A DNA stretch of 64,000 nucleotides, from positions 1-64,000 of the IMG/VR virus record IMGVR_UViG_3300005805_000065; one strand, 5' to 3'. The translations under genes were made by a program, and so were the position numbers. Source of the stretch: a virus. Lineage: Duplodnaviria > Caudoviricetes. The notes beneath the pieces were generated by a model. That model worked only from the letters and a program-made list of their open reading frames with translations, was not told the DNA's origin and did no database searches. Positions 1 through 64,000 of the stretch are shown piece after piece. Each line of letters begins with the position of its first letter. The first letter of the stretch is position 1.

Positions 1-3000
1 GAAGACTTCCTCGCAATCTAAAACCTCTTGAGGATTTGTATAATAATTTAACAAGTTCAATAGAGAGAAGAGTATCAAATATTCGAGAAACTCAACGTGC
101 AGGCGGGGTGAGTAAAACTGTTAGAGATGCTGCTGAAAAGGCAAAAAGAAATGCTTATAACATTGCAGAAGGAAATCTTCTTAAAACAAAATTTAAAGGT
201 CTCACGCTTTCTGAGAAAGATGCGGCGGGCGGGTTGGTAGAAAAGATAGCAGTCACTGCCACACCTGTGCCAGAGGATATGCAAAAGGCTTTAATGGAGG
301 AGAGGCAGGCGTTTCAGCAATTTAGGCAAATGAGTTCTCGTACTTCTAAAGAAGAAGAAAAGGTTATTAGGCAGCGGCTTAAAGAAGCAAGAAAGAAAGT
401 TGAAGCTCTTAAAAAACTGGGGGTCGCTACTAAGCCTGTGCCAACAACTACTTCTCAAGTAGTTCCAGCAAGTAAGTTGTCTAGAGACATACAAGAACTA
501 AAATCAATGGACAATGCTGCTAATCAAATGCTTGAGGCTCAAAGAACTCCAGGTATGGCATTAAGAGGCTCAACTGATGAACAAATTAATAGAAATGTTA
601 TGGAAAGAGCTAGAAGAACTATTTTGCCCAAAAAGGTAACTGCATCTACATCGAATATTAAAGCTGCATTGGAAATTTCAATATTAGAAAAGGAAAAAGA
701 AATAGCTAAAGCAATTGCTGCCGGCGATAAGAGTCTTTTGAATCTGTTAAAGCAAACACCGGGCTATTCTGATCCTGCCACGATAAAAAGAGCGACTGGT
801 AAAACAAAACAAAGATTAGAGGCTAGCAATAGAATGTTAATCAGAAGATTAGCTGAACAGCGTGCCGATTTGTCAATGTTCGATATAGATTCAGAAAAAT
901 ATGATCCCTCTGCTCAGCAAAGGTTGTTTACTAAATCATCGGCAAAGCAGGTTGCTGAGCGTCGTGTGCAAAGGGAAGTGGATGAAAGGTTAACGTCGGG
1001 GAGATCGTTTAGCACTAAAGAGATTTCAGGAAGAAAAGCGGCGGCTCTTAAGGAGGCTAAGGCTCTAGAGGAGGCTGTTAATAAAGTAGCTGCAGATAAT
1101 ACAGCTCAAGCCAGAACAGCAAGGCAAAAATTGGCTACACAATTTAATAAAACGCGAGCGGCACTGCTTAAAAGATATGGAAGCCTTGATAAAGCTGAAG
1201 AAGCACTTGCTGCAATGGCAGCAAAAGAAGCTGCCAAGTCTGCTGCTATACCAACTGCTGCGTCAGTCGCTGCATCGACTAGAGCACCAGTAGTTACAGC
1301 AGCTGGTGCTGGCGCTGTGCGAACCCCAACGGGTGTCTCAAGAGTGTTCTTCTCAGATGTCGGCAAAGCTGTAACATCAACAGTTAGTGGTGCAGCAAAG
1401 ACGGTTGGTGATGAGATAGCAAGATTGCTTGATGATGTCTTGGTCAAAGCAATCCCTGCTGGGTTTGATCCGGCAAAAGCAAAAGTTATAAGAGCTGTAG
1501 TTGGTGAGGTGTTGGCAAAAACTCCAATCACAGCAGCAAGTGCAGCAACCCCCGCCGCTCAGAAATTTATGGCTACAGTGCTTGGCACAATGGGACCAGA
1601 TATTGCTAGAGTTATTGATACATTAGCTCCGCAAATTACGGAAGCAATTTCTGCTGGTGGAATTTCTGCAAAAGGTGGGATTATACAGAGTGCCAAGGCA
1701 AGAACTGTTTCGGCATTTAATAAACTTAAAGGGGTTGCTACGGCAAAGTTGGTCGGAGATGTGGCAATGCTTAGAACAGGAATTGAGGCAGCGGTCTTTG
1801 ATGCCATTGCCGCTGCTGGCTATGCAGTTGAGAGTACAACAAGTTCAGTAGCAGAAGCCTTACGTTCTGGCACATTTAGTGATGCAATGCTACCAGGCTA
1901 TCTTGATGAATTAACTGAAAAAAGAGGGAGAAGAAGTGCCGCTGCTGTTGAAAGTGGTGCAAGAGGTGGTGCGGCAGCTGCCGAAGGCAAGCCGAGTTTA
2001 ACTAGAGAAGAAAGAAATGTAGCAAGAAGAAAAAAGCGTGCGGTGGAAAGACTGATGAAGGAAAGAGGGATAGACGCTACAGCCGCAACTACATTATATG
2101 ATGAAGCAGTAAAGTCCGGAGATGATGCCGTAAAAGAACTGCTTCCAGACACTCGAAGGAAAGTGAAGGATGCTGCTGAAAAAATTCTCGAGGCTCCTGC
2201 CGAAGCACTTGATGAAGCATCCAAGGCTGCTGGTGAAGCAGTTGCGAAGGCAAAAGAAGAGATTGTGGAATCATTAGATGAGGCAGCTGAGGCAGCTACA
2301 CCATCTGCTCCTGTTTCTAAGCCAACTCCAAAATCACCAGTTGTTCCGGGAGCGCCAGCAACTGGTCCTCCGATTATCGATGTAAGAACAACTCCGATAA
2401 AAGATATTAGATCAGGAATACCGGCTGGTGTAGATAAAATTGGTGGTCGTACAACAAAAGATGCAATCGATAAAATTTCCGCTTTAAGAGCAGAAGCGGC
2501 GAAGATTACAAAAGAACTCACAGCTGTAACGAAAGATGTAACTGGGTTCGAAAAAGCCGTCGCTTCCTCCACAGGAAGACTGCAAGCAGAGAACCAGAAG
2601 GCTTTGGATAAAGCTAAAAGTGCATTTAAGAAAAAGACAGCAAGATTAATTAAAGTAAATAAAGAACTTGATACAATACAAAAAAGTATTGATAGCGCAC
2701 TAAAGAAGGCAGCTACACCCGCAACTGCAGCAACAACAACTGCAGCAACAACAGGTGCAGCAACAACAGGTGCAGCAGCAACAGGTGCAGCAGCAACAGG
2801 TGCAGCAGCAAGCGCAGCGCCAGCAGGTGCTAGAGGACCAAGAGTGCCTGGTGTCTCAGTCCCAACAGCCACTCCAGCCGCCGCCGTAGCAACTTCTGCA
2901 ATTGTTGAAAAACTTGATGATGTGATTGTGGAGTTTGACAGATCGCTTGCAAACTTCTTTAAGGGACCAAATTTCTTCCAAGGACCAAATTATTTTGCCG

Positions 3001-6000
3001 GTCCGTTGACGGTAATGCCAAATGCTAAATTTAAAGATTATAAGAAGAGTATAAAGGATGCAACACCCTCAGAAAAAGATGCAAGATTAAGAACGCTGGT
3101 TGAAAGAACGAGGGCTAGAAGAGCAAGAGATGCCGCCGCTGCCCCCAGTGCAGCATCTGTGGCAGCGCCTGCAGCTGCGGCAACAGGAGCTGTTGCCGCC
3201 GCAAAAGCTGGGATTATGTCAAAAATTGGAGCATCTCTTGGATCTGCATTAAGCAAGAGCGCTGGTGTTGGTCTTAAAGCTGTGCAGGCTGGTTTTGGCA
3301 TAATTGGAAAATCAAGTGCTGAATTCTTTAAGATGAGCATTGCATTTATTGACATGTATGCAAATGCTCTGGGGGGAGCAACTGCAAGTTCTAAGCTTGC
3401 AGCCGGTGCGACAAAAACATTGGCTGTTGCAAAAGCTGGATTAAATTCTGTTTCTAGATTTACTACATTAGCTCTAAATAAAGCAGCCGCAGCCACAATG
3501 GCATTTGGCAGAGCTGTTGGCACAACAACTAGGGCAGAGTTGATGACATTTTATGCCTCGCTTACAAAAAGCAGGATATTAAAGATGTGGGGATTCCTAT
3601 TATTCGCAGGAATGAAGCCGATCATAAAAGGTTTTGGCGCATTGGCTTTGGCAGCTGGAAGGTTTATGTTAACATTAAAATTTGGAAATCTTCTGGCTGG
3701 TTTCCAAGCGGTGTATCAGTCGATTCTTAGAACAACACTCAGTGTTGTTGCATTGGGGATTAAATTAAATGCAGCAATGTTAATGATTGCTCCAATATTA
3801 ATATTGGTATTCTCGATTATTTCTAAAGTTAAAAGAGGAATATCCGGCATGTCGCCGGCAATGGACAATTTTAAGGCAGCGTGGTTTGCAATCAAAGATG
3901 CTATATACATGCTGGCAGCGCCGCTAGAGAATATGATTGCAGCGTTTGGTGGTTTAGGGAATCAGGGTAATTCTGTTAAAAGAACCGCTGGTGTTGTTTG
4001 GCTCCTCTCAAGAGGTGTTCGTGCAGTTGCTGAGGCATTTCAGAGATTTGCTATGGGACCAGGAACAAAATATATGCAGAGTGTTGTTGTCCCAATTATT
4101 ACAAGACTTGTAAATAGATTTATTCTACTTGGAAGAGCAATTAGCAATACATTGAGTGGAAATACCGCTAGAGCCTCAAAAGACTTTAAAGGTTTCTTAT
4201 ATTCAATGCTTTATGAATTAATTGCTGTTACTGGAAAATTTGTAAGCATCTTAGCAACAGGTTTAGAAATGTTTGCTCCAACATTAGCTAGAATGATTGA
4301 TGCAATAGTTGCTGCAACAATATCTGCATTTAGAAAAATTTTAATGTTCGTAAGAGAAGTAATGATGCTGATTGGAGCTGTTGTTGGAGGTATAGGTCTA
4401 GTAACAGGTAATTTGCCGATTGCTCTTAAGGGGGCAGCAATAGCCGGTGGTGGCGCGGCTTTCTTGTTCTTAGACAAGCAGCTTGCAAAATTTGAAGAAA
4501 GCGCACGAACAGGTGGTCTTGGCGCTGGTGAATTTATCGCAAATGGTATTGCAAGTGGCGCAAGAGGCGCTGCGAATGGTTTAGATAAACTAAAGAATTT
4601 TGTTGGTAAAAAATATGGACAAGAGATAGGTCGTGGAATAAATGATGCACTTGGTGTTGCATTAAGTAAGGATATGCCTAAAGATGTTAGAAATGCAGTT
4701 CTTAAATCCGCTGATGATGCTAATGCTGGCGGTGAATCTCTTGGTCAACAAATTGCAAAGGGGATTAAAAAAGGTCTGCAAGATCTTAAAGAGGAATTCA
4801 CAGATAAATTCTTTGGCAAGGCTGATTCTGAAGTTGATAAATTTGTTGAAAAGCTAAAAGAAGGTCTCGAGAATCAAAAAGAAAAAGCGCTGGAAGCGTT
4901 TGATAATCAAGTAGAAGCAATTGAAGCTCTTGCTGAGGCTGAAGAAAGACTTACTGCAAAAATTGAATATGAAGAAAAGCGCCGTGAGATGATTCGTGAA
5001 AGAGCGCTGAATAAAGAAAATTATTTGCGTGAAAGAAAAGTTGCTGCCTATGAAGGTAGATCGGAAGACGTTCGTTCTTTGGATCTTTCATTTAGAAAGT
5101 CAAGTCGTGAAGAAGAGAAGAATTTAAATGAGTTAGATTTGGATAGAGCAAGAACCCTGCAGGCTGAGAATAGGCAGAATGCAATAAAAGTTATTAATAA
5201 AGAAAAAGAAAATCTTATCAAAGAATATGAAAAGATGTTTAAAAACTTTGATGAGAAAATTGAGCTCATAAAATCAAGAGGTTTCTCTACAGAAGCCGAG
5301 TTTAGACAGATGTTTACCAATCTCCAGAATGCTGCATCTGGCTTCTCTGACGACATAGCTGGTTCGCTAGAGAAGTCAATGATGAGCCTGCCAGCGGCTA
5401 TAAGACAGCATTCTGACCCATCAATTGGAATGTTTGGCATGACAATGGGTAAATTGGTTGATGAAGCTAAAAAGTCATTTGGTGTCGGTATTAGCTCGGC
5501 AGATACTGTATCAATACTTGGTGCTGCGTATTCATTAGTAAATGGAATGCCGAGTGCATTTAGGGAAGGGTTTAATCAAGGAATTGTTTCAACATACGTT
5601 ACTCCATTTGCAACAAAGGTTAAAGGTGAACTTGCATCAATAGTTCCCTCAGATCTATGGGTGAAGTCTGCGGGTCTGGCGATACAAGAAATGGTAAACG
5701 AAATGAAGCGAAAGCTCGTCAGTCTCAAGGGAACTTTGTATGACGATATGAAGAAGATGTTTGGCGAAATGACCGAAGAAGATTGGAATAGAATATTCAA
5801 CTTCTCCGGGGCGTTTTCTGATCTGGAATCTCTAAAAGATTATTTCAGCAATCTGTTCCCTACGGCAGAAAAACTCAAGAAACAGATAGTAACGATTGAG
5901 ACAACGAGATCAAATGCAGATTCTGGTGGCAGTGGTGAAAAGCCAAAGGCAGGAGCTGGTTTAACTCCAAGCGAAGTGAACGCGCTAAAGCCTGGAAATC

Positions 6001-9000
6001 AAGACATGCTGGTAAGAGTTGGTAAAGGATTAGTGCCTGGTCCAATTGAACCAAAAGAGGATCCAAAGAAAGGCTATTTTAGCAAACTGAAAGACATTAT
6101 AGTTGGAATAGCTGAGTATCTTGGTCCAGTTAAAACAGCAATTCTGGGATTTGTTGGTGTTGTTGCTGGAGCAGCTACGGCTCTGCCAATATGGGTTGCC
6201 ATAAAGGGAGTGCTGGTTGCAGTCGCTGGAACAGTTGGAATTATACCTGTTTTGATTGGAACTGCAGTAGGAGTCCTTATTTATCTATATGCAAGATTTA
6301 AGGCTGTCAGAGATATTGTAAACGGTGTTGCCATAGCAATCTGGGACGGGCTTGTAGCCGCTTTTAATTTTGTTAAAGATTTAGGAATTGGGGCTTTTGA
6401 TGGAATTAAAATTGCATTTGGTAATTTATGGGATGGTTTTAATAATATTGCATTACCACAAATTAAAAACTTATGGGATGGATTTACATCTGGATTTACA
6501 ATTGCACTCGATTTTCTAAAAGATCAATTAGTTAGAAGATGGAATGTTATTGTAGACATTGTTAAGAGCCTGTTTGGTCCGATTAAAGAAATGTGGAAAG
6601 CAAGCCTTGAGGCTGGATGGAGTATAGCAAAAAATATATTTGAAAATATTTGGAATGTTTTGAAAGAACTATTTCTTACATTAAAGGTAATATTTGAGCC
6701 AATTATAAAAATTGTAATTGGTGCATTTGTTATTTTAACAGAAGTTATAACAAGAGTTATGGAAGGATTGAAAGGACCAATTATTGGTATTGGCACTGTT
6801 ATAGCTAAAACATTTACGTTCTTATATCCAATTTTTGCAAATATTGCAAACTTTATAATTGATGTTTTGGGTGGTGCAATTGTTGGTGTATTAAAAATAA
6901 TTAGAGGCGTATTCCAGGGCATATACGCAGTAATAGGTTTTGTTGTAAAAGGTTTGTACACATCAGTAAGTGTTGTTGTCAGTGTAGCTGCAGGAATTGC
7001 TAAAGCGATATTTAATATTTTAAATGCAATTTGGACCAACCCGGTGGTTAAGTGGATTAGAGATTTCTTGTTTAGAGTTCTCATGCTTGGTATTTTTATT
7101 GTTGCAAAATTGCTAGAAACATTTGCTAAGACAATATTTAACTCTTTCAAGACAGTGTTTAATATATTTAAAGCGGTTGCTGGATTCATATATGATAGCT
7201 TGAAGCCTGGACTTGAGTTAATATGGACAGTTATCAAAGCTGTATTCACCCCAGTTGTGGAAGTGTTAAAAGGTGTTTGGCAATTTATAAAATGGATATA
7301 TGATGAGTTTGGAATTCTTGGATTAATTTTGGCTCCATTTGTTGCTGCGTTTGAATTGATAAGAAAAGCCCTTGAGATTGCATGGAATGTTGCCAAGGCG
7401 TTTTTTGAAACATTCATGGTTCTTGGAAGAATTGTATTTTCATTAGTTAAAGATTTGGCTAAAGCAATTTGGGACGGGCTCGGTAAAGTTTGGGATCTGA
7501 TTTCTCCAATAGTGAATAAATTCTGGGATGGTCTAAAGATAGCCGCAGAGTTTGTGTGGGGGGTTATTAAATCTGTTGGGCAGGGTATTTGGGATGCGCT
7601 AGGGTGGGTTTGGGATAAAATTGGTTTAGTTGCTGGCAAGTTCTGGGATGGATTGAAAGCTGTTGCTCAAACCGTTTGGGATTTTCTTAAAACTGTTGGT
7701 CAAGGTATATGGGATGGGCTGGGTTGGATTTGGGACAAGATTGGTGGAGTTGCAAAGGCATTTTGGGAAGGGCTGAAAACTGCCGCACAAACTGTATGGG
7801 ATTTCTTGAAGACAATCGGAGATGGCATTTGGAATGCGATTGGCTGGGTGTGGGGCAGGATTGGTGGAGTAGCAAAAGCATTTTGGGAAGGATTAAAAAT
7901 AATAGCTAAAAATGTATTGGACTTTTTTAAGACTTACAATATTTGGGAGATTCTTGGGAAAGTCTGGGATCTAGTTAAACAAGCCGCGGAGATGTCTTTT
8001 GGATTTATAAAAACTGTTGCTGAAACTGTTTGGGCTTTTCTAAAAACTGTTGGAGAAGGCATCTGGGTGGCGCTGGGTAGTGTTTGGGACATGATAAAAC
8101 CGGCAGTTCAAGGGTTTTGGGACATTATTACCGCTGGTTGGGATATTGTCGGTCCAATCTTTGATGGCATCTGGGGCTGGCTGTGGGAGTGGATAGGTCC
8201 AGCATTTAATATGATTGTTGAGACAGTAAAGTTGTTCATGGATGCCTTCCAGACATTATGGAGCTGGGCTGAACCTGTATTAAGTCAACTTTGGGGTTGG
8301 CTATGGGATGGTATTAAGTGGGCATGGGATCAAATTGCTGAAGTATTAAGTTTCTATTGGGATCTGTTTAAGAGAGTATGGGGCTGGCTTGGACCAATTC
8401 TTAAAGAATTTATGGGCTGGCTGTGGGACAAGATAAAGGTAGCATGGGAAAATCTTGTCACAGCTGTTCAAAAAGTTTGGGACATTATAAAGGGAATGTG
8501 GGAGGTCGTTTCTCCAATCCTGCAAAAGATGGCTGAATTGATAAAGAATGGGATTGGGGCGGCAATTGATGGTGTTAAAGCAGCGTGGAATTTGTTAAAA
8601 GACGCTGTCTCAGGCACTTTTAATTGGTTTAAAGATAAGTTTGGTGCGGTTGGCGAAATGATTAGAGATTCTATTGGTGGCGCTGTTGATTGGGTATCGG
8701 ATAAGTTTAATAATATACCAGAAATATTTAAGAGTGTAATAAATGGAGTGACTGGGGCAATAAATAAAGTTACTGGATTTACATTCACTATGCCACCATG
8801 GCTGAAATATATTGGACTTGGATCAGTCGCTGGTAAGACATATTCATTTAGAGATGTTATACCAGAAATACCAAAATTATATAATGGTGGAAAAGTTGGC
8901 TCTTACATGAAGGGCGGCATGGCTTACGGCTATGGCGGTATGACCAAGGGATTTGCGCAACAAGGGATCCCAGCAGTATTGCACGGCGGTGAGTATGTAA

Positions 9001-9332
9001 TTAATCACAAAGCAGTAAAGAGAATTGGCACTGATACTCTCGATGCGCTAAACAATATGCGCTTGTCAAAGCCAAGATACCCACAAATGCCTTCAATTCC
9101 AAATGTCACCATGCCAAACTTAAGAATTGATAACTCCACAATCGCCCAAGCCCCGGCTGGATCTTCTACTCAAAATGTAAATATCTATGTTGATACGTTT
9201 GTTGGCGAACCAGAGTGGTTCAACTCAATGATGAAGGAATACAATACAAGAGTTCTTCCAAGAAATCAAAAAGCTGCAGGTCTTGAAAATAGAGTTATAA
9301 GAACATATAACGGATTGAATAGAGGTGGATGA
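1..9332 (+). CDS. Tail tape measure protein (5' truncated by window edge)
   Basis: Frame is open from base 3, so the TTG at 36 is probably not the true start. Ala/Lys-rich helical composition, 11/22-residue Trp-periodic repeats (IWDGLGWVWDK type, ~7.4-8.6 kb) and a C-terminal LHGGEYV motif. Directly upstream of tail genes. Confidence 0.9.
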   Translation, partial: RLPRNLKPLEDLYNNLTSSIERRVSNIRETQRAGGVSKTVRDAAEKAKRNAYNIAEGNLLKTKFKGLTLSEKDAAGGLVEKIAVTATPVPEDMQKALMEERQAFQQFRQMSSRTSKEEEKVIRQRLKEARKKVEALKKLGVATKPVPTTTSQVVPASKLSRDIQELKSMDNAANQMLEAQRTPGMALRGSTDEQINRNVMERARRTILPKKVTASTSNIKAALEISILEKEKEIAKAIAAGDKSLLNLLKQTPGYSDPATIKRATGKTKQRLEASNRMLIRRLAEQRADLSMFDIDSEKYDPSAQQRLFTKSSAKQVAERRVQREVDERLTSGRSFSTKEISGRKAAALKEAKALEEAVNKVAADNTAQARTARQKLATQFNKTRAALLKRYGSLDKAEEALAAMAAKEAAKSAAIPTAASVAASTRAPVVTAAGAGAVRTPTGVSRVFFSDVGKAVTSTVSGAAKTVGDEIARLLDDVLVKAIPAGFDPAKAKVIRAVVGEVLAKTPITAASAATPAAQKFMATVLGTMGPDIARVIDTLAPQITEAISAGGISAKGGIIQSAKARTVSAFNKLKGVATAKLVGDVAMLRTGIEAAVFDAIAAAGYAVESTTSSVAEALRSGTFSDAMLPGYLDELTEKRGRRSAAAVESGARGGAAAAEGKPSLTREERNVARRKKRAVERLMKERGIDATAATTLYDEAVKSGDDAVKELLPDTRRKVKDAAEKILEAPAEALDEASKAAGEAVAKAKEEIVESLDEAAEAATPSAPVSKPTPKSPVVPGAPATGPPIIDVRTTPIKDIRSGIPAGVDKIGGRTTKDAIDKISALRAEAAKITKELTAVTKDVTGFEKAVASSTGRLQAENQKALDKAKSAFKKKTARLIKVNKELDTIQKSIDSALKKAATPATAATTTAATTGAATTGAAATGAAATGAAASAAPAGARGPRVPGVSVPTATPAAAVATSAIVEKLDDVIVEFDRSLANFFKGPNFFQGPNYFAGPLTVMPNAKFKDYKKSIKDATPSEKDARLRTLVERTRARRARDAAAAPSAASVAAPAAAATGAVAAAKAGIMSKIGASLGSALSKSAGVGLKAVQAGFGIIGKSSAEFFKMSIAFIDMYANALGGATASSKLAAGATKTLAVAKAGLNSVSRFTTLALNKAAAATMAFGRAVGTTTRAELMTFYASLTKSRILKMWGFLLFAGMKPIIKGFGALALAAGRFMLTLKFGNLLAGFQAVYQSILRTTLSVVALGIKLNAAMLMIAPILILVFSIISKVKRGISGMSPAMDNFKAAWFAIKDAIYMLAAPLENMIAAFGGLGNQGNSVKRTAGVVWLLSRGVRAVAEAFQRFAMGPGTKYMQSVVVPIITRLVNRFILLGRAISNTLSGNTARASKDFKGFLYSMLYELIAVTGKFVSILATGLEMFAPTLARMIDAIVAATISAFRKILMFVREVMMLIGAVVGGIGLVTGNLPIALKGAAIAGGGAAFLFLDKQLAKFEESARTGGLGAGEFIANGIASGARGAANGLDKLKNFVGKKYGQEIGRGINDALGVALSKDMPKDVRNAVLKSADDANAGGESLGQQIAKGIKKGLQDLKEEFTDKFFGKADSEVDKFVEKLKEGLENQKEKALEAFDNQVEAIEALAEAEERLTAKIEYEEKRREMIRERALNKENYLRERKVAAYEGRSEDVRSLDLSFRKSSREEEKNLNELDLDRARTLQAENRQNAIKVINKEKENLIKEYEKMFKNFDEKIELIKSRGFSTEAEFRQMFTNLQNAASGFSDDIAGSLEKSMMSLPAAIRQHSDPSIGMFGMTMGKLVDEAKKSFGVGISSADTVSILGAAYSLVNGMPSAFREGFNQGIVSTYVTPFATKVKGELASIVPSDLWVKSAGLAIQEMVNEMKRKLVSLKGTLYDDMKKMFGEMTEEDWNRIFNFSGAFSDLESLKDYFSNLFPTAEKLKKQIVTIETTRSNADSGGSGEKPKAGAGLTPSEVNALKPGNQDMLVRVGKGLVPGPIEPKEDPKKGYFSKLKDIIVGIAEYLGPVKTAILGFVGVVAGAATALPIWVAIKGVLVAVAGTVGIIPVLIGTAVGVLIYLYARFKAVRDIVNGVAIAIWDGLVAAFNFVKDLGIGAFDGIKIAFGNLWDGFNNIALPQIKNLWDGFTSGFTIALDFLKDQLVRRWNVIVDIVKSLFGPIKEMWKASLEAGWSIAKNIFENIWNVLKELFLTLKVIFEPIIKIVIGAFVILTEVITRVMEGLKGPIIGIGTVIAKTFTFLYPIFANIANFIIDVLGGAIVGVLKIIRGVFQGIYAVIGFVVKGLYTSVSVVVSVAAGIAKAIFNILNAIWTNPVVKWIRDFLFRVLMLGIFIVAKLLETFAKTIFNSFKTVFNIFKAVAGFIYDSLKPGLELIWTVIKAVFTPVVEVLKGVWQFIKWIYDEFGILGLILAPFVAAFELIRKALEIAWNVAKAFFETFMVLGRIVFSLVKDLAKAIWDGLGKVWDLISPIVNKFWDGLKIAAEFVWGVIKSVGQGIWDALGWVWDKIGLVAGKFWDGLKAVAQTVWDFLKTVGQGIWDGLGWIWDKIGGVAKAFWEGLKTAAQTVWDFLKTIGDGIWNAIGWVWGRIGGVAKAFWEGLKIIAKNVLDFFKTYNIWEILGKVWDLVKQAAEMSFGFIKTVAETVWAFLKTVGEGIWVALGSVWDMIKPAVQGFWDIITAGWDIVGPIFDGIWGWLWEWIGPAFNMIVETVKLFMDAFQTLWSWAEPVLSQLWGWLWDGIKWAWDQIAEVLSFYWDLFKRVWGWLGPILKEFMGWLWDKIKVAWENLVTAVQKVWDIIKGMWEVVSPILQKMAELIKNGIGAAIDGVKAAWNLLKDAVSGTFNWFKDKFGAVGEMIRDSIGGAVDWVSDKFNNIPEIFKSVINGVTGAINKVTGFTFTMPPWLKYIGLGSVAGKTYSFRDVIPEIPKLYNGGKVGSYMKGGMAYGYGGMTKGFAQQGIPAVLHGGEYVINHKAVKRIGTDTLDALNNMRLSKPRYPQMPSIPNVTMPNLRIDNSTIAQAPAGSSTQNVNIYVDTFVGEPEWFNSMMKEYNTRVLPRNQKAAGLENRVIRTYNGLNRGG
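2721..2810 (+). repeat. 15-bp coding tandem repeat (GCAGCAACAACAGGT-like; AATTG/AAATG peptide) in the tape measure gene
   Basis: About 5 imperfect copies read directly from the sequence. Confidence 0.85.
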
Positions 9333-19495: not shown

Positions 19496-19785
19496 TCGAT
19501 AGTTGGAGAAAGAAAGCTCTCTGTCTAATAGACAAGAATAGCAAGTATTGGTTTTCTTATAAATATGAAGAAGTCCAGTATGCTAAAACTGTTTGCAAAT
19601 CATGCACTGTTAGAAAAGAATGCATTCTCAATATGTGGGAAACAGATTCTTTTTATGGTGTTAATGGTGGCTTATCTGAATTTGATGTAATGCAAGAAAC
19701 TTGGAAGAAGGTGAATAAGCCAGATGATTCTAACTGGAAACGAACTGATAGAGTACTTCAAAGATTGTTGCAGAAAGCATCGTAA
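19492..19785 (+). CDS. whiB: WhiB-family Fe-S transcription factor
   Basis: WRKKALC...AKTVCKSCTVRKEC...GVNGG; start at ATG 19492 overlapping the previous stop. Confidence 0.8.
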   Translation: MIDSWRKKALCLIDKNSKYWFSYKYEEVQYAKTVCKSCTVRKECILNMWETDSFYGVNGGLSEFDVMQETWKKVNKPDDSNWKRTDRVLQRLLQKAS

Positions 19786-46290: not shown

Positions 46291-46641
46291 ATGAACAGTA
46301 AGGTATTTAGTCCAATTAAAGAAGTATGGCGTGACAAAGCTGCTTGTAAAGGTGTATCAATTGATACATTCTATTTTGAGTCAACTGAAGAAAATAGAAA
46401 CTTGAAAAAGGAGACAGAAAAGGCTAAGGCTTTTTGTAAAGAATGCCCTGTTGCTGAGCAATGCTTGGCTTATGCTTTAAACGAAGATATTAGGTTCGGA
46501 GTATGGGGTGGTTTTACATCAAGAGAACGCGGATCATTACGCAAAATGTTTAGAACAGACGACTACAAAGCAGTTGCTAGTAAAGTTGTAAATAAAACTA
46601 TGCATATGATCAGGTACAAGCTTCAGAAAAATGAGCTCTAA
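46291..46641 (+). CDS. whiB: WhiB-family transcription factor (second copy)
   Basis: WRDKAAC...AKAFCKECPVAEQCLAYAL...GVWGG...ER. Confidence 0.92.
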   Translation: MNSKVFSPIKEVWRDKAACKGVSIDTFYFESTEENRNLKKETEKAKAFCKECPVAEQCLAYALNEDIRFGVWGGFTSRERGSLRKMFRTDDYKAVASKVVNKTMHMIRYKLQKNEL

Positions 46642-46851
46642 TGGCATACAATGTTAAGTCTAAAGGTATATCCTATACAGCTAAATATTGGTTTGCTCGT
46701 GGATATGCAGATTGTATGAATAATATTGATAATCCACCTAGTATTGAAATGCAAGAATACTTTTTGGAAACTTTAAAAGTAAATGTAATAGATGAATACA
46801 ATCATGGCAAAAAAGTTGCCGAAAGAGACAAAGTAAACCGTGGAGGTTAAT

Positions 46852-47817
46852 ATGAAAAATAAGCAAGTATCAAACAACAACAACAAGGAGAAAGTAGTGA
46901 AAAATAAAACTACCTCTAATCAATTAACAGCAAAGCAAGCCAGAAAGGATTTGAATGTAGCAATTGCTACTAAACACGAATCCCTCGGTGCAAACTTTGA
47001 TATTGGACACATTTCAAAGATGTCTTCTTTGATTAAAGTTTCTGATATGTTTGTTGATTACACCTATCAGCGTGAACCGTTGAAGGCAAAAATCAACCGT
47101 ATTGTAAAGAGTTTTGACCCAGATTTGCTTGGTGTAATCACTTGCTCAATGCGTGAAGATAATACATTGGCAATTATTGATGGTAGCCATAGGTATCATG
47201 CATTGATTGCTATGGGAATGAAAAACACAAATGTAAACGCTCTCGTTTACTTTGGTCTATCAATTGAAGATGAAGCGCGTATTTTTGCGTTGACTAATAA
47301 AGAACACACAAAACCAACGCCGGCACAAATCTTTAAAGCAGGAGTTGTTTCTGGAGATAAATCTGCAATTGCAATTGATACAATTGTTGATAAAGTTGGT
47401 GCTAAAATCCATTTCTCACCTGGCGCTGATAATATTAGATGTGTCGGCACTTTGCGAAAAGTTTACACAAATGCCGGTGGAAATGTGCTGGCTAAGACAC
47501 TAGAAACACTTAAAGCCGCGTACCCAAATAATGAAGAAATGTACAGTGGTCAAATGATTTCAGCAATTGCTTGCATCTATAATCGATACGGTAAGAAAGT
47601 AGATCAACAACGATTGATTGAGACATTAACAAAGATTGGCAACCCTTCAATAGTCATTGCTCAGGCAAAGGCTATGATTAGCAGTGGTACAGTCGTTACT
47701 TTCACTTCATTGCCATATCTTATTGTTAGCCGATACAATGTGAAATTGAAGACTAATCGCCTTACTGATTTCCCAATGAATTTGGTTGCTCAACAAGTAT
47801 GGACAAGCAAAGGTTAA
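46852..47817 (+). CDS. ParB/Srx-like N-terminal domain protein
   Basis: VDYTYQR...FDPDLLG...IIDGSHRYHA; SD-led starts at both 46852 (ATG) and 46897 (GTG). Confidence 0.7.
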   Translation: MKNKQVSNNNNKEKVVKNKTTSNQLTAKQARKDLNVAIATKHESLGANFDIGHISKMSSLIKVSDMFVDYTYQREPLKAKINRIVKSFDPDLLGVITCSMREDNTLAIIDGSHRYHALIAMGMKNTNVNALVYFGLSIEDEARIFALTNKEHTKPTPAQIFKAGVVSGDKSAIAIDTIVDKVGAKIHFSPGADNIRCVGTLRKVYTNAGGNVLAKTLETLKAAYPNNEEMYSGQMISAIACIYNRYGKKVDQQRLIETLTKIGNPSIVIAQAKAMISSGTVVTFTSLPYLIVSRYNVKLKTNRLTDFPMNLVAQQVWTSKG

Positions 47818-59930: not shown

Positions 59931-59984
59931 GGTATACGCTACCAAATGGGTATACGTAACCAAATGGGTATACGCTACCAAATA
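59931..59984 (+). repeat. Three 18-bp direct repeats GGTATACG(CT/TA)ACCAAAT(G/A) (iteron-like)
   Basis: Copies at 59931, 59949 and 59967. Confidence 0.95.
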
Positions 59985-60039: not shown

Positions 60040-60055
60040 TGTTCCACGTGGAACA
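60040..60055. promoter_or_regulatory. parS-type palindrome TGTTCCACGTGGAACA
   Basis: Perfect 16-bp palindrome conforming to the bacterial parS consensus; intergenic. Confidence 0.75.
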
Positions 60056-60101: not shown

Positions 60102-60128
60102 CAAAAAAATTTGTCTAAAATGGCATAT

Positions 60129-60216
60129 AAAAATAAATAAAAATAGGTAAAAACATAGTAAAAAGTGGTAAAAAGTGGGGAAAAGTAGGGAAAAATGGGG
60201 CAAAAGATAGTAAAAA
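60129..60216 (+). other. Nine helically phased A4-5 tracts (curved DNA)
   Basis: Tracts start at 60129, 139, 149, 160, 170, 181, 191, 202 and 212; mean period 10.4 bp. Confidence 0.85.
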
Positions 60217-60254
60217 GTGTGCGATTGTGAAATGCTCATATCTTGAGACCCTAT

Positions 60255-60277: not shown

Positions 60278-60730
60278 TGGCATAAATTTAAAAGAATATA
60301 CTGATAGAAACAAATAAACCCCGATTTTTTCATTGCCCTTACTATCGACCTTTTAATCGAGAGAAGTCTCGAGGATTTTTAGTACAGTTCAAACGACTAA
60401 TCAACCAATTTTAATATGCAGAGAAAGCCGGATTGATTACAACGTTGTTATTACCGACTTTATAATGTCGGGGTAGATCAATGGATCTATATCGTCTTTG
60501 GTATAGGAATAAATAGAGCCGACTACCCAGCCATTGGCACACAAGGGTGGTCCCTAAAAAAAATTTGCCTGCATCCGCATAGGCAAAACTAAATACAATT
60601 TGAAACAGATATGTAGATATATAGTTATGATTAGGAATATAGATTAAAGTAAAGGAAAAAAGAAATAAAAATAAATTGGTGTACAAATAAGAATACATTC
60701 TTATTCGGAACACCAACTCAAAGGTTTAGT

Positions 60731-60812
60731 TTGAAAATATGTAATCAAGTTAGGTAAATACAAATGCAAAACAATTGGTGGTCAAGCAGCGCTTAGCTGC
60801 TAAGACCACCAA
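60731..60812. promoter_or_regulatory. Promoter-less operator + inverted-polarity hairpin module 0
   Basis: TTGAAAATATGTAATCAA (60731-48), then hairpin 60775-60812 with TAAGC loop on the minus strand. Confidence 0.7.
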
Positions 60813-60814
60813 CG

Positions 60815-60842
60815 AAAATGCGTGCGCCTTTCGGCGCACGCA
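60815..60842 (-). terminator. Cassette 1 terminator
   Basis: 10-bp GC stem, GAAA loop on the minus strand, T4. Confidence 0.8.
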
Positions 60843-60868
60843 CTCCGTGTGAACGGCATTGCCATTGG

Positions 60869-61150
60869 TTATTTGGCTAGCGAAACCACACACTCACCGT
60901 CAGTAGTCCATTGAATGGACACTTCCAATGAGTGCTGGCTTGCCATTGAAACAACACGATTGCGCACTTTGTTTTTGTGTGCAATGTAGTTGTCGTCTTC
61001 GGGATTGCCTTGTCCGGCTTCGTAGATGAATGCGTCATCTTCTACGCCAGCGTCAAGTGCGAGCAGTTCGGCTTCCAGGATTGGGTCCTGGAATGCGTCA
61101 CGACCACGCTTGACTAGTCGGGATTGGATATCGCTCAGGTTCACTTTCAT
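60869..61150 (-). CDS. Cassette 1 gene, paralogue family KVNL..IQSRLVKRGRDA (copy 1)
   Basis: SD GAAAGG; 93 aa; obvious similarity to copies 2 and 3. Confidence 0.85.
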   Translation of the reverse strand: MKVNLSDIQSRLVKRGRDAFQDPILEAELLALDAGVEDDAFIYEAGQGNPEDDNYIAHKNKVRNRVVSMASQHSLEVSIQWTTDGECVVSLAK

Positions 61151-61197
61151 AGTGCGCCTGCCTTTCTTTGTGATTGGGCAACCCGTTCACGAAGAAC

Positions 61198-61294
61198 ACA
61201 CTACCTAGACATTGAGAATGTGTATTCAACAGACTATGCCTATGCATCTAGTGAACGGGCGTGCAACGCAGCTAGGCGCTGGCTCGCACTCCCG
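61198..61294 (-). promoter_or_regulatory. Cassette 1 promoter/operator + hairpin
   Basis: -10 TAGTGT (61198-203), operator 61212-29, hairpin 61256-94 (loop TAGGC on +). Confidence 0.85.
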
Positions 61295-61308
61295 CCAGGT
61301 AAAAGAAT

Positions 61309-61392
61309 TAGAAAATGTATATTAAAAGTGAGACACATAGCGATCCCTAAAGGCTGGCGGTCAAGCAGCGTATAGCTGCTAAGAACGCCAGC
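61309..61392. promoter_or_regulatory. Promoter-less degenerate operator + inverted hairpin
   Basis: TAGAAAATGTATATTAAA (14/18 match to the cassette 1 operator), hairpin 61353-92 with TATAC loop on -. Confidence 0.7.
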
Positions 61393-61395
61393 GAG

Positions 61396-61423
61396 AAACG
61401 CCCCGCCCTTGCGGGGCGGGGCG
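61396..61423 (-). terminator. Cassette 2 terminator
   Basis: GC stem, GCAA loop on -, short U tract. Confidence 0.75.
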
Positions 61424-61439
61424 CTCTCACTTGCGGGGA

Positions 61440-61742
61440 TTACTTGCGAAACGAAACGACCATTTCGCCAGCGTCAGTCCATTGGACGCTGATTTCCACC
61501 TCGTCCCCGAGGTGGCGAGTGGCGAGGGAGTTGACACGATTCCGCCAAGTGTTCTTGTGGTTCGTGTACTCCTCGTTGGTGCTGACGCACTCACCCTCGA
61601 ATGTCGCCTCCTCGAAGAGGAATGCGTCATCAGGGGTGCTCGGGTCAAGGGCGAGCAATTCCGCTACGAGTTCAGGGTTCTCGTATGCGTCACGCCCACG
61701 CTTGACCAAGCGGGACTGAATCTGTTTCAGGTTGACCTTCAT
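61440..61742 (-). CDS. Cassette 2 gene, paralogue copy 2
   Basis: SD AAGGAG 7 nt before ATG 61742 (MKVNLKQIQSRLVKRGRDA); 100 aa. Confidence 0.85.
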   Translation of the reverse strand: MKVNLKQIQSRLVKRGRDAYENPELVAELLALDPSTPDDAFLFEEATFEGECVSTNEEYTNHKNTWRNRVNSLATRHLGDEVEISVQWTDAGEMVVSFRK

Positions 61743-61797
61743 TTCATTTCTCCTTGTTGCGAGGTGATAGGGAATTGCGTCCTCGTCAACACTCAAC

Positions 61798-61895
61798 ACA
61801 CTAACTAGGTAATGAGAATGTGTACTCAACTAACTATGTCTATGGCAACGCAACGCCGGTCGTGCAATGTAGCTATGCGCTACTATGCCCGCCCG
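61798..61895 (-). promoter_or_regulatory. Cassette 2 promoter/operator + hairpin
   Basis: -10 TAGTGT, operator 61812-29, hairpin 61857-95 (loop TATGC). Confidence 0.85.
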
Positions 61896-61910
61896 CCGGG
61901 GTAAGGTAAT

Positions 61911-61993
61911 TAGAAAATGTGTATTAAAGAGAATGTGAAAGCGATCTCACTGCGGCTGGCGGTCAAGAGCGAATAGCTCGACAGAACGCCAGC
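61911..61993. promoter_or_regulatory. Promoter-less degenerate operator + inverted hairpin
   Basis: TAGAAAATGTGTATTAAA, hairpin 61955-93 with TATTC loop on -. Confidence 0.7.
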
Positions 61994-61996
61994 GAG

Positions 61997-62025
61997 AAAC
62001 GCCCCGACCCTTTCGGGTCGGGGCG
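61997..62025 (-). terminator. Cassette 3 terminator
   Basis: CGCCCCGACCC/GGGTCGGGGCG, GAAA loop on -. Confidence 0.8.
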
Positions 62026-62048
62026 CTTTCGGGGAGTAGGCGTGGTGG

Positions 62049-62345
62049 TTACGCCTTGTATGACACCACCATCTCGCCATCCACTGTCCACTGGATGGAG
62101 AGTGAGCCATCGGGGATACCGATGCTCGATGCGACCGACTTGACACGGTTGCGCCACAAGTTCTTGTGGTTCACGTACTCGTCGCTGTCGGTGTCACCTG
62201 CGAACGTCGCTTCCTCAAAGAGGAAGGCATCGTCGTTCTCAGGGCTGAGCGCAGTCAGTTCTGCGCTCAACTGCTCGTTCTCGTAGGCATCACGCCCACG
62301 CTTCACGAGCCTGCTTTGGATGTCTTTCAGGTTTACCTTTGCCAT
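62049..62345 (-). CDS. Cassette 3 gene, paralogue copy 3
   Basis: SD AAAGGAG before ATG 62345 (MAKVNLKDIQSRLVKRGRDA); 98 aa. Confidence 0.85.
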   Translation of the reverse strand: MAKVNLKDIQSRLVKRGRDAYENEQLSAELTALSPENDDAFLFEEATFAGDTDSDEYVNHKNLWRNRVKSVASSIGIPDGSLSIQWTVDGEMVVSYKA

Positions 62346-62397: not shown

Positions 62398-62494
62398 ACA
62401 CTACTTAGGCATTGAGAAAGTGTATTCAACTTAGTATGCGTATGCTACGAGAGAACTGGCGTGCAAGCGGAGCTAAGCGCTCCTCGCCCACCAG
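62398..62494 (-). promoter_or_regulatory. Cassette 3 promoter/operator + hairpin
   Basis: -10 TAGTGT, operator 62412-29, hairpin 62456-94 (loop TAAGC). Confidence 0.85.
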
Positions 62495-62498
62495 CCGC

Positions 62499-62537
62499 AA
62501 GACAAAAAGAAAAGGGGTGAGCCTTTCGGCTCACCCC
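62499..62537 (-). terminator. Cassette 4 terminator
   Basis: GGGGTGAGCC/GGCTCACCCC, GAAA loop, long U tract on -. Confidence 0.9.
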
Positions 62538-62544
62538 AGGTCTT

Positions 62545-62859
62545 TCACCTACGCCTGCGCTCTCGTTGGAGCCTGCGTATGGCTGGTTTGGTGTTGTCGA
62601 GGTAGATACCCCATTCAGTACCTTCTCGACGGTATCGCACGGCGTAGTCGCGAACCCTCACACACTTGCTGTCCTTGCGTGCCAACACGTGCTTTGCCGT
62701 GGTGAACACTTTGGTGAACATCACGGCTGTCTCGCTGTCCGAGACAGTCAGAAGTTTCACCATTGTGGGACGACGCTTGAGCCTGAGCACTCCGAACGCC
62801 TTTCGGAGCCGAGCGAGAGCCCAGTATCCGTATTCGTCTGCCAATGTCATTGTTGCCAT
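62545..62859 (-). CDS. Cassette 4 gene, basic hypothetical protein
   Basis: SD GAAAGG; 104 aa lying between promoter and terminator. Confidence 0.75.
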   Translation of the reverse strand: MATMTLADEYGYWALARLRKAFGVLRLKRRPTMVKLLTVSDSETAVMFTKVFTTAKHVLARKDSKCVRVRDYAVRYRREGTEWGIYLDNTKPAIRRLQRERRRR

Positions 62860-62909: not shown

Positions 62910-63008
62910 ACACTAACTAGGCATTGAGAATGTGTACTCAACTATGGAGAGTGTATCTACCGTGTGTGCGGGCGTGCAACCTAGCTAAGCGCTCGATCGC
63001 CCACCCGC
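62910..63008 (-). promoter_or_regulatory. Cassette 4 promoter/operator + hairpin
   Basis: -10 62910-15, operator 62924-41, hairpin 62968-63008 (loop TAAGC). Confidence 0.85.
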
Positions 63009-63011
63009 CCT

Positions 63012-63051
63012 AAGACAAAAAAAGAGGGCGAGGGGCTTGCGCCCCTCGCCC
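63012..63051 (-). terminator. Cassette 5 terminator
   Basis: 11-bp GC stem, GCAA loop, U7 tract on -. Confidence 0.9.
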
Positions 63052-63057
63052 GACTTC

Positions 63058-63300
63058 TTATTCCTCTTCGGCTTCCATTGCGTCAGCCATTACCTGCCAG
63101 CACTCAGCGCCGATTCCTGAGATGAGAACCTCACGGTCGTCGAGGCTCAGGAATGGGAGAGCGTCCTGAATCAGGTACTCTCCACTCTGCCATTGGGAGA
63201 GCCCGACCATTGTTGCGATGAACAACTCGTCGGGGACAGTCACCGTGTGGTTAGCACCACAGATGACGCACTCCTTGTTGTTGGTGATTGTTGCGGACAT
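63058..63300 (-). CDS. Cassette 5 gene, small Cys-containing protein
   Basis: MSATITNNKECVICG...LIQDALPFLSLDDREVLISG..ECW; purine-rich SD. Confidence 0.8.
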   Translation of the reverse strand: MSATITNNKECVICGANHTVTVPDELFIATMVGLSQWQSGEYLIQDALPFLSLDDREVLISGIGAECWQVMADAMEAEEE

Positions 63301-63350: not shown

Positions 63351-63448
63351 ACACTACATAGGCATTGAGAATGTGTACTCAACTATGGAGACTGTGTGTA
63401 TCGTGTGAGTGGGCGTTCGCGAAGCTAGGCGCTTAGCCGCCCGCCCAC
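63351..63448 (-). promoter_or_regulatory. Cassette 5 promoter/operator + hairpin
   Basis: -10 63351-56, operator 63365-82, hairpin 63409-48 (loop TAGGC). Confidence 0.85.
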
Positions 63449-63450
63449 CA

Positions 63451-63493
63451 AAGACAAAAAAAGAGGGGAGCCGAGGCTTTCGCCTCGGCTCCC
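63451..63493 (-). terminator. Cassette 6 terminator
   Basis: 12-bp GC stem, GAAA loop, U7 tract on -. Confidence 0.9.
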
Positions 63494-63521: not shown

Positions 63522-63857
63522 CTAGCGCCGAGCGAGGCGCAAGGCACGAAGTACCTTGCGAACCCTCGCCTTGCGCTTATTGCGCTTGCGTGTGCGACGA
63601 GCCTTGCGCTTCGTCGCCTCGCTCCACGGCTTGCGCTTGCGCTTGGGCTTGGCGATGTGCCTCACCTGCGCCTTGGCGCGAGCCTTGGGGCTGGCAACGA
63701 CCGCTGGGGTCGTCGGGGCGATGACCGTCGCCTGCGGTGCTGGCGCAGTTGCCTGCGCTGGCTTGACTACCACCGCTGGCTTGACTGCCTGCGCTGGCTG
63801 TGTCTGCCCTGCGAGAAGTGCTCCTCGCAAGGCTGGGTGCTTGCCTGACTTAGCCAT
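63522..63857 (-). CDS. Cassette 6 gene, Ala/Pro/Thr-rich protein with Lys/Arg-rich tail
   Basis: SD AGGAGG before ATG 63857; C-terminal KPKRKRKPWSEATKRKARRTRKRNKRK. Confidence 0.75.
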   Translation of the reverse strand: MAKSGKHPALRGALLAGQTQPAQAVKPAVVVKPAQATAPAPQATVIAPTTPAVVASPKARAKAQVRHIAKPKRKRKPWSEATKRKARRTRKRNKRKARVRKVLRALRLARR

Positions 63858-63898: not shown

Positions 63899-63997
63899 AC
63901 CTTACCTAGGCATTGAGAATGTGTACTCAACTAACAACGAGACAGACATCGTGAGAGTGGGCGTACAGCGCAGCTAAGCGCTGATCCGCACGCCCAC
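63899..63997 (-). promoter_or_regulatory. Cassette 6 promoter/operator + hairpin
   Basis: -10 TAAGGT at the same offset as TAGTGT in the other units, operator 63913-30, hairpin 63957-97 (loop TAAGC). Confidence 0.85.
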
Positions 63998-64000
63998 CAG

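Follow-up and report, generated by a model that had tools for sequence, protein, structure and literature searches.

At the junctions of a gene cassette array in a freshwater phage, a hairpin of about 40 nucleotides (nt) is held at a nearly constant distance from an 18-nt promoter box. The array was found in IMG/VR virus record IMGVR_UViG_3300005805_000065, which is linear, 83,571 base pairs (bp) long and about 80% complete; the stretch analysed here, referred to as the window, comprises bases 1-64000 of this record. The array is an island of 9-10 single-gene cassettes on the minus strand at 60.8-65.3 kb, with three more units beyond the window. The modules between the cassettes are about 130 nt long, and in gene direction the order is intrinsic terminator, hairpin, linker, box, the -10 hexamer TAnnGT, leader and an orphan open reading frame (ORF). 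The hairpin beside the promoter box is a real control element which has apparently not been described before. As to its mechanism we infer, tentatively and with somewhat less than even confidence, that hairpin and box form one bipartite docking site at the DNA level which would control the promoters of the cassettes.

Spacing between hairpin and box

A first-pass annotation of the window had described a fixed distance between box and hairpin loop in six promoter units and three extra modules, and had explained it by phasing over about four helical turns. Both sets of distances could be reproduced exactly. Measured in gene sense from the loop end to the box start they are 43, 44, 44, 44, 43 and 44 nt in the promoter units (boxes starting at 61229, 61829, 62429, 62941, 63382 and 63930, in the same order) and 42, 43 and 42 nt in the extra modules (boxes A' no. 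1 to 3 in Table 1). A covariance model built from the nine hairpins of this genome was scanned over the relatives and finds about 63 normal and 13 flipped, that is reverse-complemented, hairpins in seven non-redundant genomes. The spacing counts are based on 75 units (62 normal, 13 flipped) in these genomes, which are this phage and six relatives with 8-14 array units each.

Within each genome the loop-to-box distance is fixed (44/43, 42, 43, 46, 46, 45 and 45 nt), between the lineages it ranges from 41 to 46 nt, and for flipped units it is 42-44 nt in all genomes. The sharper invariant is not this distance but the one from the stem base, taken at a conserved pair near it, to the box, which amounts to 26-27 nt in 75 of 75 units. 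Its standard deviation is 0.5 in normal and 0.36 in flipped units, compared with 1.5 for loop-to-box in normal units, and it stays constant while the arm length differs between lineages. The linker has diverged in sequence across the seven genomes without indels, and only a short lineage-specific motif beside the stem is kept. Since, in addition, the distance from the end of the -10 to the start codon is variable (about 41-55 nt, differing by more than 10 nt among cassettes), the spacing is under a constraint of its own, which is anchored at the folded stem base. Conservation in homologous arrays had been set beforehand as a test of the idea of a constrained unit of hairpin and box, and over the seven genomes the idea holds despite the diverged linker. 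The phasing over four turns is not supported, as the loop-to-box distance moves by up to 5 nt between lineages with base-to-box unchanged, and a folded hairpin fits better than helical phasing of two duplex sites.

Hairpin and box might also have no joint function. In that case the hairpins would be back-up, U-less or tandem terminators, and the spacing would be due to descent, gene conversion or compaction against the edge of the polymerase footprint. The hairpins do lie directly 3' of terminators, in several arrays a T-run comes after the last flipped hairpin, and the modules are homologous repeats. The three extra modules of this genome, each consisting of a reverse-complemented hairpin and then an AT-rich box A' (TTTAATAYACATTTTCTA) without a -10, are found only with the three distal cassettes c1-c3, between their own terminator and the next normal hairpin. 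These cassettes are paralogues of one family, family A, and form a tandem triplication with a unit of 600 bp (boxes 600 and 600 bp apart), and the extra modules therefore represent one event within this genome instead of three independent ones. However, neighbouring spacers are variable where the linker has kept its length, base-to-box withstands the lineage changes in arm length, and the apex GC-GNNTA-GC, which is invariant in both orientations, is not needed by a plain terminator. We consider an absence of joint function to be quite improbable.

Strand and polarity of the hairpin

The hairpin has been selected as a folded single strand. Over 40 copies 88% of the stem cells are paired compared with 75% in shuffles, and in 12 of the 16 stem pairs both partners have changed. 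Covariation scores 0.365, compared with 0.145 for shuffled alignments; none of 500 shuffles reaches the observed value, and slid partners give at most 0.09. On the gene-sense strand the normal hairpins contain 83 G:T pairs but only 11 A:C pairs, an excess which indicates that they fold on this, the non-template, strand. DNA folding gives a mean of -13.6 kcal/mol for the sense and -10.9 kcal/mol for the antisense strand, the sense strand being more stable in seven of nine copies and equal in the other two.

The 13 flipped hairpins comprise 181 Watson-Crick pairs, no G:T and one A:C pair; on the opposite strand both the GNNTA loop and the asymmetry of the bulges are preserved. A double constraint would lead to such near-perfect pairing of either strand, and Watson-Crick stems are expected if DNA is read, since both strands are then available. 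The flipped polarity noted in the first annotation is confirmed: the loops of the extra modules read GNNTA on the plus strand (TANNC on the opposite one), and those of the promoter units read TANNC on the plus strand. For the three extra modules the covariance model scores 26, 21 and 17.7 bits on the plus strand versus 14.9, 11.7 and 11.2 bits on the minus strand.

The GTATA pentaloop and a TAAGAA tail, which we take to resemble type I-F repeats, had suggested a mimic of a CRISPR repeat. This candidate was ruled out by the stems, which covary within one genome, unlike a mimic of one host repeat, and by the lack of an Rfam match: among known RNA families (Rfam 15) only sub-threshold matches were obtained, the best being BjrC68 on a terminator with 29 bits versus a gathering threshold of 39.

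In gene direction the cassette box reads TTGAGTAC, with TTGAGTACACATTCTCAA as the lineage form of this phage. It overlaps the -35 region, and the start codon follows about 75-90 nt downstream. A 25-nt box pattern has six matches in the window where none is expected; boxes and hairpins are confined to the array and occur nowhere else in the 83.6-kb record, and the exact box pattern gave no match in a viral contig collection. Box A consists of a conserved core TTKARTAC and a lineage-specific tail, as seen in the variants TTGAGTACACATTCTCAA, TTTAGTACGGTTTCTTGG, TTGAGTACACTTACTTGA and TTGAATACAYATTCTCA, and box A' stays TTTAATACAMATTYTCWA across lineages. A dyad within the box, TTGAG-N8-CTCAA, was considered as an RNA hairpin or MerR-type operator and rejected, because it is not conserved between lineages and is off the spacer centre.

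All nine promoter units of this genome carry TAnnGT 20 nt past the TTGAGT hexamer of the box, and the boxes of the extra modules lack it at that site. Over the seven genomes a strict TAnn[GT]T stands 20-21 nt past the first six bases of the box (TTGAGT) in 57 of 62 normal units, the other five having TAnnnT, and in none of the 13 flipped units is a -10 present at the expected site (Fisher p = 7e-11, for copies which are related by descent and not independent). Hairpin polarity thus tracks promoter status. A divergent or antisense promoter at box A' was considered and rejected, as no -10 stands at a conserved position there, be it in this genome or in the relatives. The promoter-less flipped type is kept after family-A genes in all relatives, and is therefore not a decaying relic. 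A spacing of 20-21 nt is too long for an ordinary pair of -35 and -10, and the internal box is read as a putative factor site overlapping the -35 region, in combination with a -10 of actinobacterial type. The actinobacterial -10 is of the type GnTAnnnT.

The fold could also be used in RNA. The hairpin would then be an element of gene-sense RNA, from read-through or from transcripts of the promoter at the head of the array, with a protein-binding pentaloop serving boxB/nut-like antitermination, processing or insulation of cassettes, and the fixed distance to the box would be secondary. The wobble bias favours the transcribed sense strand, and the invariant G-N-N-U-A loop closed by C-G has the form of a GNRA-like pentaloop. 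Such pentaloops are bound by phage N peptides and by Cas6f. One cassette (c6) encodes a protein with an Arg/Lys-rich tail, and the terminators of family-A genes have weak U-tracts. At the head of the array (record position 65341) a TTGAGT with canonical 17-bp spacer and TACTTA is found in AT-rich context; the first hairpin follows about 75 nt downstream (record 65195-65341) without an intervening terminator, an arrangement kept in the related contigs L012 (1781) and L018 (278). Most hairpins, however, follow a strong intrinsic terminator and precede the next promoter, which places them outside primary transcripts. An RNA element also leaves unexplained the 26-27 nt to a DNA promoter box over 75 units, as well as the flipped copies, which have GNNTA on the untranscribed strand at the same spacing and for which no conserved antisense promoter was seen. 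From metatranscriptomes two short RNA contigs were recovered, both over family-A gene bodies only and uninformative on transcription of the hairpins. Altogether a function in RNA seems rather unlikely, though it is the most probable of the alternatives to the docking site.

The fixed distance between stem base and box, together with flipped copies which keep the loop at the same distance, is most easily explained by a protein that reads folded DNA along with the box. In such a docking site hairpin and box would be the two halves of one cis-acting control element in the cassette junctions of an early array of the host-takeover type. The hairpin would be extruded from negatively supercoiled DNA, and a putative factor of the phage lineage would read the apex together with the box, the joint reading turning the promoters of the cassettes on or off; host RNA polymerase possibly takes part with its upstream edge, the stem base falling near -65. 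In the flipped units, where the recognisable arm belongs to the other strand and a -10 is missing from the box, the same factor might bind without firing, and these units may serve as auxiliary operator or boundary after the family-A genes. Being conserved, the modules may in addition offer stretches of homology at which cassettes are exchanged, the crossovers taking place in the box. It is more doubtful that a supercoil-extruded, strand-specific DNA hairpin is an obligatory upstream element of host-polymerase promoters, its polarity deciding between firing and silent docking or boundary.

Several points weigh against a docking site of folded DNA. The G:T wobble of about 10% is equally typical of RNA structure, and covariation and wobble counts come from alignments fitted to the model of this genome's own copies. 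The first hairpin lies downstream of the head promoter with no terminator between them, and therefore at least that copy should be transcribed. Start sites and -10 are assigned from sequence, the factor binding hairpin or box remains putative, and in vivo extrusion of an interrupted hairpin with 17-bp arms from duplex DNA is hypothetical.

Cassette exchange and genome setting

Common to the seven arrays are family A, with 2-4 copies placed distally, and some further families, whose order is altered among many unique ORFs. A 14.9-kb contig from another study (run X8) contains two extra cassettes of about 450 and 370 bases at two promoter boxes, with junction duplications in box A (record 64367-64395 and 64705-64730). 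The assembly of run X3 breaks at every module and shows three repeat-mediated joints with sides of 30-31 nt, which are weak and possibly artefacts of the assembly graph. The junctions of cassette indels between strains fall in box or promoter and not in the hairpins, and no inversion or strand-switch joints were seen among the strain joints.

These data bear on the suggestion of the first-pass annotation that operator and hairpin are a nucleoprotein site independent of transcription, used for recombination, replication or repressor looping. The two intervals in which hairpins of opposite polarity surround an AT-rich box (N1 and F2, N2 and F3 in Table 1) are indeed present; the inversion envisaged between such hairpins finds no counterpart in the strain assemblies. 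The promoter-less flipped units kept in all relatives would suit such a site, as would the shuffling of cassette content between phages with two extra cassettes in one strain. In relatives a second box, A', is found 98-102 bp upstream of box A, and the normal hairpin stands roughly halfway between the two, a geometry reminiscent of short repressor loops with an apical bend. On the other hand, most units of this genome have no A' partner for looping. A cassette promoter lies downstream of every normal hairpin but of no flipped one, no unit is found outside the array, and the indel junctions avoid the hairpins. A tyrosine recombinase (PF00589) was not found in the 83.6-kb record, which is about 80% complete, in a search with positive controls, and neither was a Y1 HUH transposase or RAYT (PF01797), the gene expected beside sub-terminal hairpins of the IS200/IS605 or REP kind; the hairpins of this phage occur in the array alone. 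What remains of the suggestion is the constrained unit itself, supported by the conserved spacing; its independence of transcription and a role in recombination, replication or looping are not supported, and we regard a site of this kind as improbable.

The array can also be compared with an integron, the hairpins being folded sites of the attC type and the recombinase being encoded in the missing 20% or so of the genome or by the host. The cassettes have single ORFs all in one direction and are gained and lost between strains, and the hairpins are conserved in structure and variable in sequence, with fixed bulges and strand-specific folding. Nevertheless, the stem bases of the aligned copies read GGYGGGCG...CGCCCRC and carry no R''/R' core sites (RYYYAAC/GTTRRRY), the 83.6 kb encode no IntI-type integrase, every cassette has its own promoter and terminator, and the strain junctions are in the box and not at the hairpin base. 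An integron-like array is highly improbable.

Table 1. Features of the cassette array within the window (positions in window coordinates; nt, nucleotides; aa, amino acids).
Feature	Position	Strand	Remarks
Box A' no. 1	60731..60748	-	TTGATTACATATTTTCAA in gene sense; no -10
Flipped hairpin F1	60775..60812	+	loop GCTTA on + strand; stem all Watson-Crick; 42 nt loop to box A'
Terminator stem-loop of c1	60820..60841	-	family A
Cassette gene c1	60869..61150	-	family-A paralogue, 93 aa
Promoter unit 1	61198..61229	-	box A, then -10 TAGTGT 20 nt after TTGAAT hexamer
Normal hairpin N1	61253..61296	-	loop GCCTA in gene sense; 43 nt to box
Box A' no. 2	61309..61326	-	no -10
Flipped hairpin F2	61353..61392	+	loop GTATA on + strand; 43 nt to box A'
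Terminator stem-loop of c2	61400..61424	-	weak U-tract
Cassette gene c2	61440..61742	-	family-A paralogue, 100 aa
Promoter unit 2	61798..61829	-	
Normal hairpin N2	61854..61897	-	44 nt loop to box
Box A' no. 3	61911..61928	-	no -10
Flipped hairpin F3	61955..61993	+	loop GAATA on + strand; 42 nt to box A'
Terminator stem-loop of c3	61997..62028	-	
Cassette gene c3	62049..62345	-	family-A paralogue, 98 aa
Promoter unit 3	62398..62429	-	
Normal hairpin N3	62454..62496	-	
Intrinsic terminator of c4	62514..62537	-	
Cassette gene c4	62545..62859	-	orphan, 104 aa
Promoter unit 4	62910..62941	-	
Normal hairpin N4	62966..63009	-	
Intrinsic terminator of c5	63026..63051	-	
Cassette gene c5	63058..63300	-	family B, 80 aa
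Promoter unit 5	63351..63382	-	
Normal hairpin N5	63407..63449	-	
Intrinsic terminator of c6	63466..63493	-	
Cassette gene c6	63522..63857	-	111 aa, Arg/Lys-rich tail
Promoter unit 6	63899..63930	-	
Normal hairpin N6	63955..63998	-	array runs on to ~65.3 kb with three more units

The orphan ORFs of the cassettes encode 33-111 aa. None of the cassette proteins matches a Pfam family above cut-off, and the only PHROG match (c5) is to a family of unknown function. Family A proteins have about 100 aa with the invariant motifs LVKRGR and NHKNxWRNRV. Every array ends distally in 2-4 diverged tandem copies of the gene, and it is always a family-A gene that a flipped hairpin follows. A large protein collection contains 30 homologues and nine viral loci were found, whereas a prokaryote set with one genome per species contains none, and family A belongs to no Pfam or PHROG family. 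The AlphaFold model is confident (pLDDT 87). It gave E values of 0.13 or worse by Foldseek against the PDB and a best Z of 5.7 in the VIA wide search, where weak R3H-like rows at Z 4-5 are at noise level, and no named cluster was found in the protein Atlas.

Past the last box A' (window 60555-60722) an AT-rich copy of the module was noticed. Its hairpin (60668-60722) keeps the conserved outer stem TTGGTGT/ACACCAA; after 26-27 nt comes TTTAATCTATATTCCTAA, which resembles the box, and after about 60 nt more a terminator (about 60557-60585). This copy may be a small RNA gene, and the related contig L011 seems to have the same arrangement.

The phage belongs to the siphophages. An ORF at 3-9332, which runs off the contig start, encodes more than 3100 aa of a tape measure protein, recognised by tape measure family matches; the family matches span only residues ~1470-3020, and the N-terminal half has no family. 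Genes for a DnaE-type polymerase, a DnaB helicase and an exonuclease are present, and portal, protease and capsid genes are located at 77-82 kb of the record. Two genes of the WhiB family (window 19504-19680 and 46327-46536) score above the Pfam cut-off, and such genes are a mark of actinobacteria and their phages. The nearest portal and DnaE proteins are those of Streptomyces cluster-BE phages (45% and 37% identity, respectively). Together with the WhiB genes this points to an actinobacterial host for this abundant group of lake phages. A sigma region-2 domain was not found in the 83.6-kb record, and a phage-type RNA polymerase (RNA_pol families) was not detected in a search without a working positive control. 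The cassette promoters therefore presumably use the host RNA polymerase.

The phage is AT-rich (31-45% G+C, with about 34% quoted as contrast to the array). At 60.8-65.3 kb G+C rises to 53-59%, and it drops back after 65.3 kb. An assembly chimera as the source of the GC-rich island was ruled out, as AT-rich DNA resumes past 65.3 kb, nine related viral contigs have the same sharp boundary at the homologous gene, and lake and freshwater metagenomes of 11 studies hold the island stretch at 75-97% of the sampled words. A blastn search of the island against the INPHARED phages gave no match. The composition might be that of early genes resembling the host, either in codon usage before phage tRNAs are available or as an escape from Lsr2-type silencing of AT-rich DNA.

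The array probably adjoins a physical genome end within the repeat-rich non-coding stretch at 59.9-60.8 kb, with a terminal repeat as candidate, because in the syntenic order the array is followed by leftward accessory genes and then by the rightward portal gene. In the non-coding stretch a perfect 16-bp parS-type palindrome, TGTTCCACGTGGAACA, is found at window 60040-60055, and a ParB-like protein is encoded at 46840-47817. A convergent gene-free region (59931-59983 and 60119-60219) contains three 18-bp direct repeats GGTATACGCTACCAAAT and A-tracts with a period of 10-11 bp, likely bent DNA. This gene-free region is a candidate for a genome end, packaging site or origin.

Comparison with known systems

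Small DNA hairpins which serve strand-specifically as early transcription signals of a phage are known from coliphage N4. At its early promoters supercoiled DNA extrudes a hairpin, stable on one strand only, which a giant virion RNA polymerase recognises; the hairpin has a stem of 5-7 bp and a 3-nt loop and belongs to the template strand, with the start site about 11 nt away. The hairpins described here, whose extrusion would be a further likeness, differ in lying on the non-template strand about 65-105 nt upstream of the putative start, and in ending 26-27 nt before the box. An N4-like or crAss-like virion polymerase was considered and rejected, the giant ORF being the tape measure gene. Should the hairpin indeed be read in its folded DNA form, this would add a rare example of structure-encoded transcription control beyond the N4-like phages, and the N4 principle would then also apply to ordinary promoters of actinobacteriophages that are served by host polymerase. 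The boxB of lambda-type nut sites and other GNRA-like pentaloop RNA hairpins are similar in having a stem of 4-5 bp and a loop of five bases that begins with an invariant G and ends with an invariant A, and in recurring within the early region of a phage. Nut sites lie downstream of promoters and upstream of terminators. In contrast, most hairpins of the array come after a terminator and before the next promoter, and neither a boxA equivalent nor an N-like gene could be identified.

SAS and ESAS elements are found in Cluster K mycobacteriophages and Cluster EF Microbacterium phages, and intergenic inverted repeats in Clusters O and EG (PMC3203893, PMC7302621). As in the array, a conserved asymmetric box with an imperfect inverted repeat just upstream precedes a subset of non-structural genes, the consensus is lineage-specific and the function unexplained. 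But the SAS is a 13-bp box at the ribosome-binding site, and the ESAS consists of 17-bp inverted repeats immediately upstream with a variable spacer, whereas the box described here overlaps the -35 region at a rigid spacing. There is no sequence similarity, and neither covariation nor strand asymmetry was reported for the ESAS. The organisation is similar, the element is different. If its hairpin is read as folded DNA, the module could help to explain such motifs of box plus inverted repeat, which are common in actinobacteriophages.

Streptomyces phage Mildred21 has a 10.8-kb terminal repeat with small leftward genes at the genome end; terminal repeats of cluster BE were compared with those of T5 and SPO1 (PMC5764925). 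Its gaps of 110-140 bp contain a terminator, the palindrome TGTCCGGnCCGGACA, about 45 nt and then a TAGACT -10, and the repeat has 52-60% G+C compared with 46-49% in the neighbouring DNA. Small leftward genes, intergenic modules of terminator, palindrome and -10, and an array richer in G+C than its flanks are thus shared. However, the palindrome of Mildred21 is short, conserved in sequence and adjoins the terminator, and a homologue of the box and a flipped class are missing. The comparison places an abundant freshwater phage group beside the Streptomyces cluster-BE phages.

The closest parallel in organisation are the PeSL (promoter-early stem-loop) cassettes of T4-type phages, in which small orphan early genes stand between composite terminator/promoter motifs of about 100 bp; recombination between these motifs, without a dedicated recombinase, makes related phages differ by entire cassettes (PMC2839356, PMC4122927). 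Mini-circles excised during infection are a further mark of PeSLs. Here too composites of a terminator and a host-type promoter are repeated (nine units, 8-14 per relative), small orphan genes are flanked in a hypervariable region whose cassette content differs between the seven arrays, and the indel junctions lie inside the motif, as in the box A duplications of the run X8 contig. The stem-loop of a PeSL is the terminator itself, whereas here a terminator is followed by a second, covarying and strand-specific hairpin with an invariant pentaloop, which is held 26-27 nt from the box and also exists as a flipped promoter-less variant. Moreover, PeSLs belong to T4-like myoviruses, whereas this phage is a siphophage of actinobacteria and has a tape measure protein, and the resemblance is therefore one of analogy and not of common descent. 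The module is of a known kind, that of the composite terminator/promoter cassettes which punctuate phage early regions and mediate their shuffling. In such early arrays phages trade genes for host takeover and anti-defence, and the junction modules set both expression and exchange. The module of this phage group, a compact and testable cis-element of about 100 nt, carries a second element beyond the usual terminator and promoter. What is new is the separate, covarying and strand-specific hairpin, its spacing from the box to the single nucleotide, and a promoter-less class that is coded by orientation.

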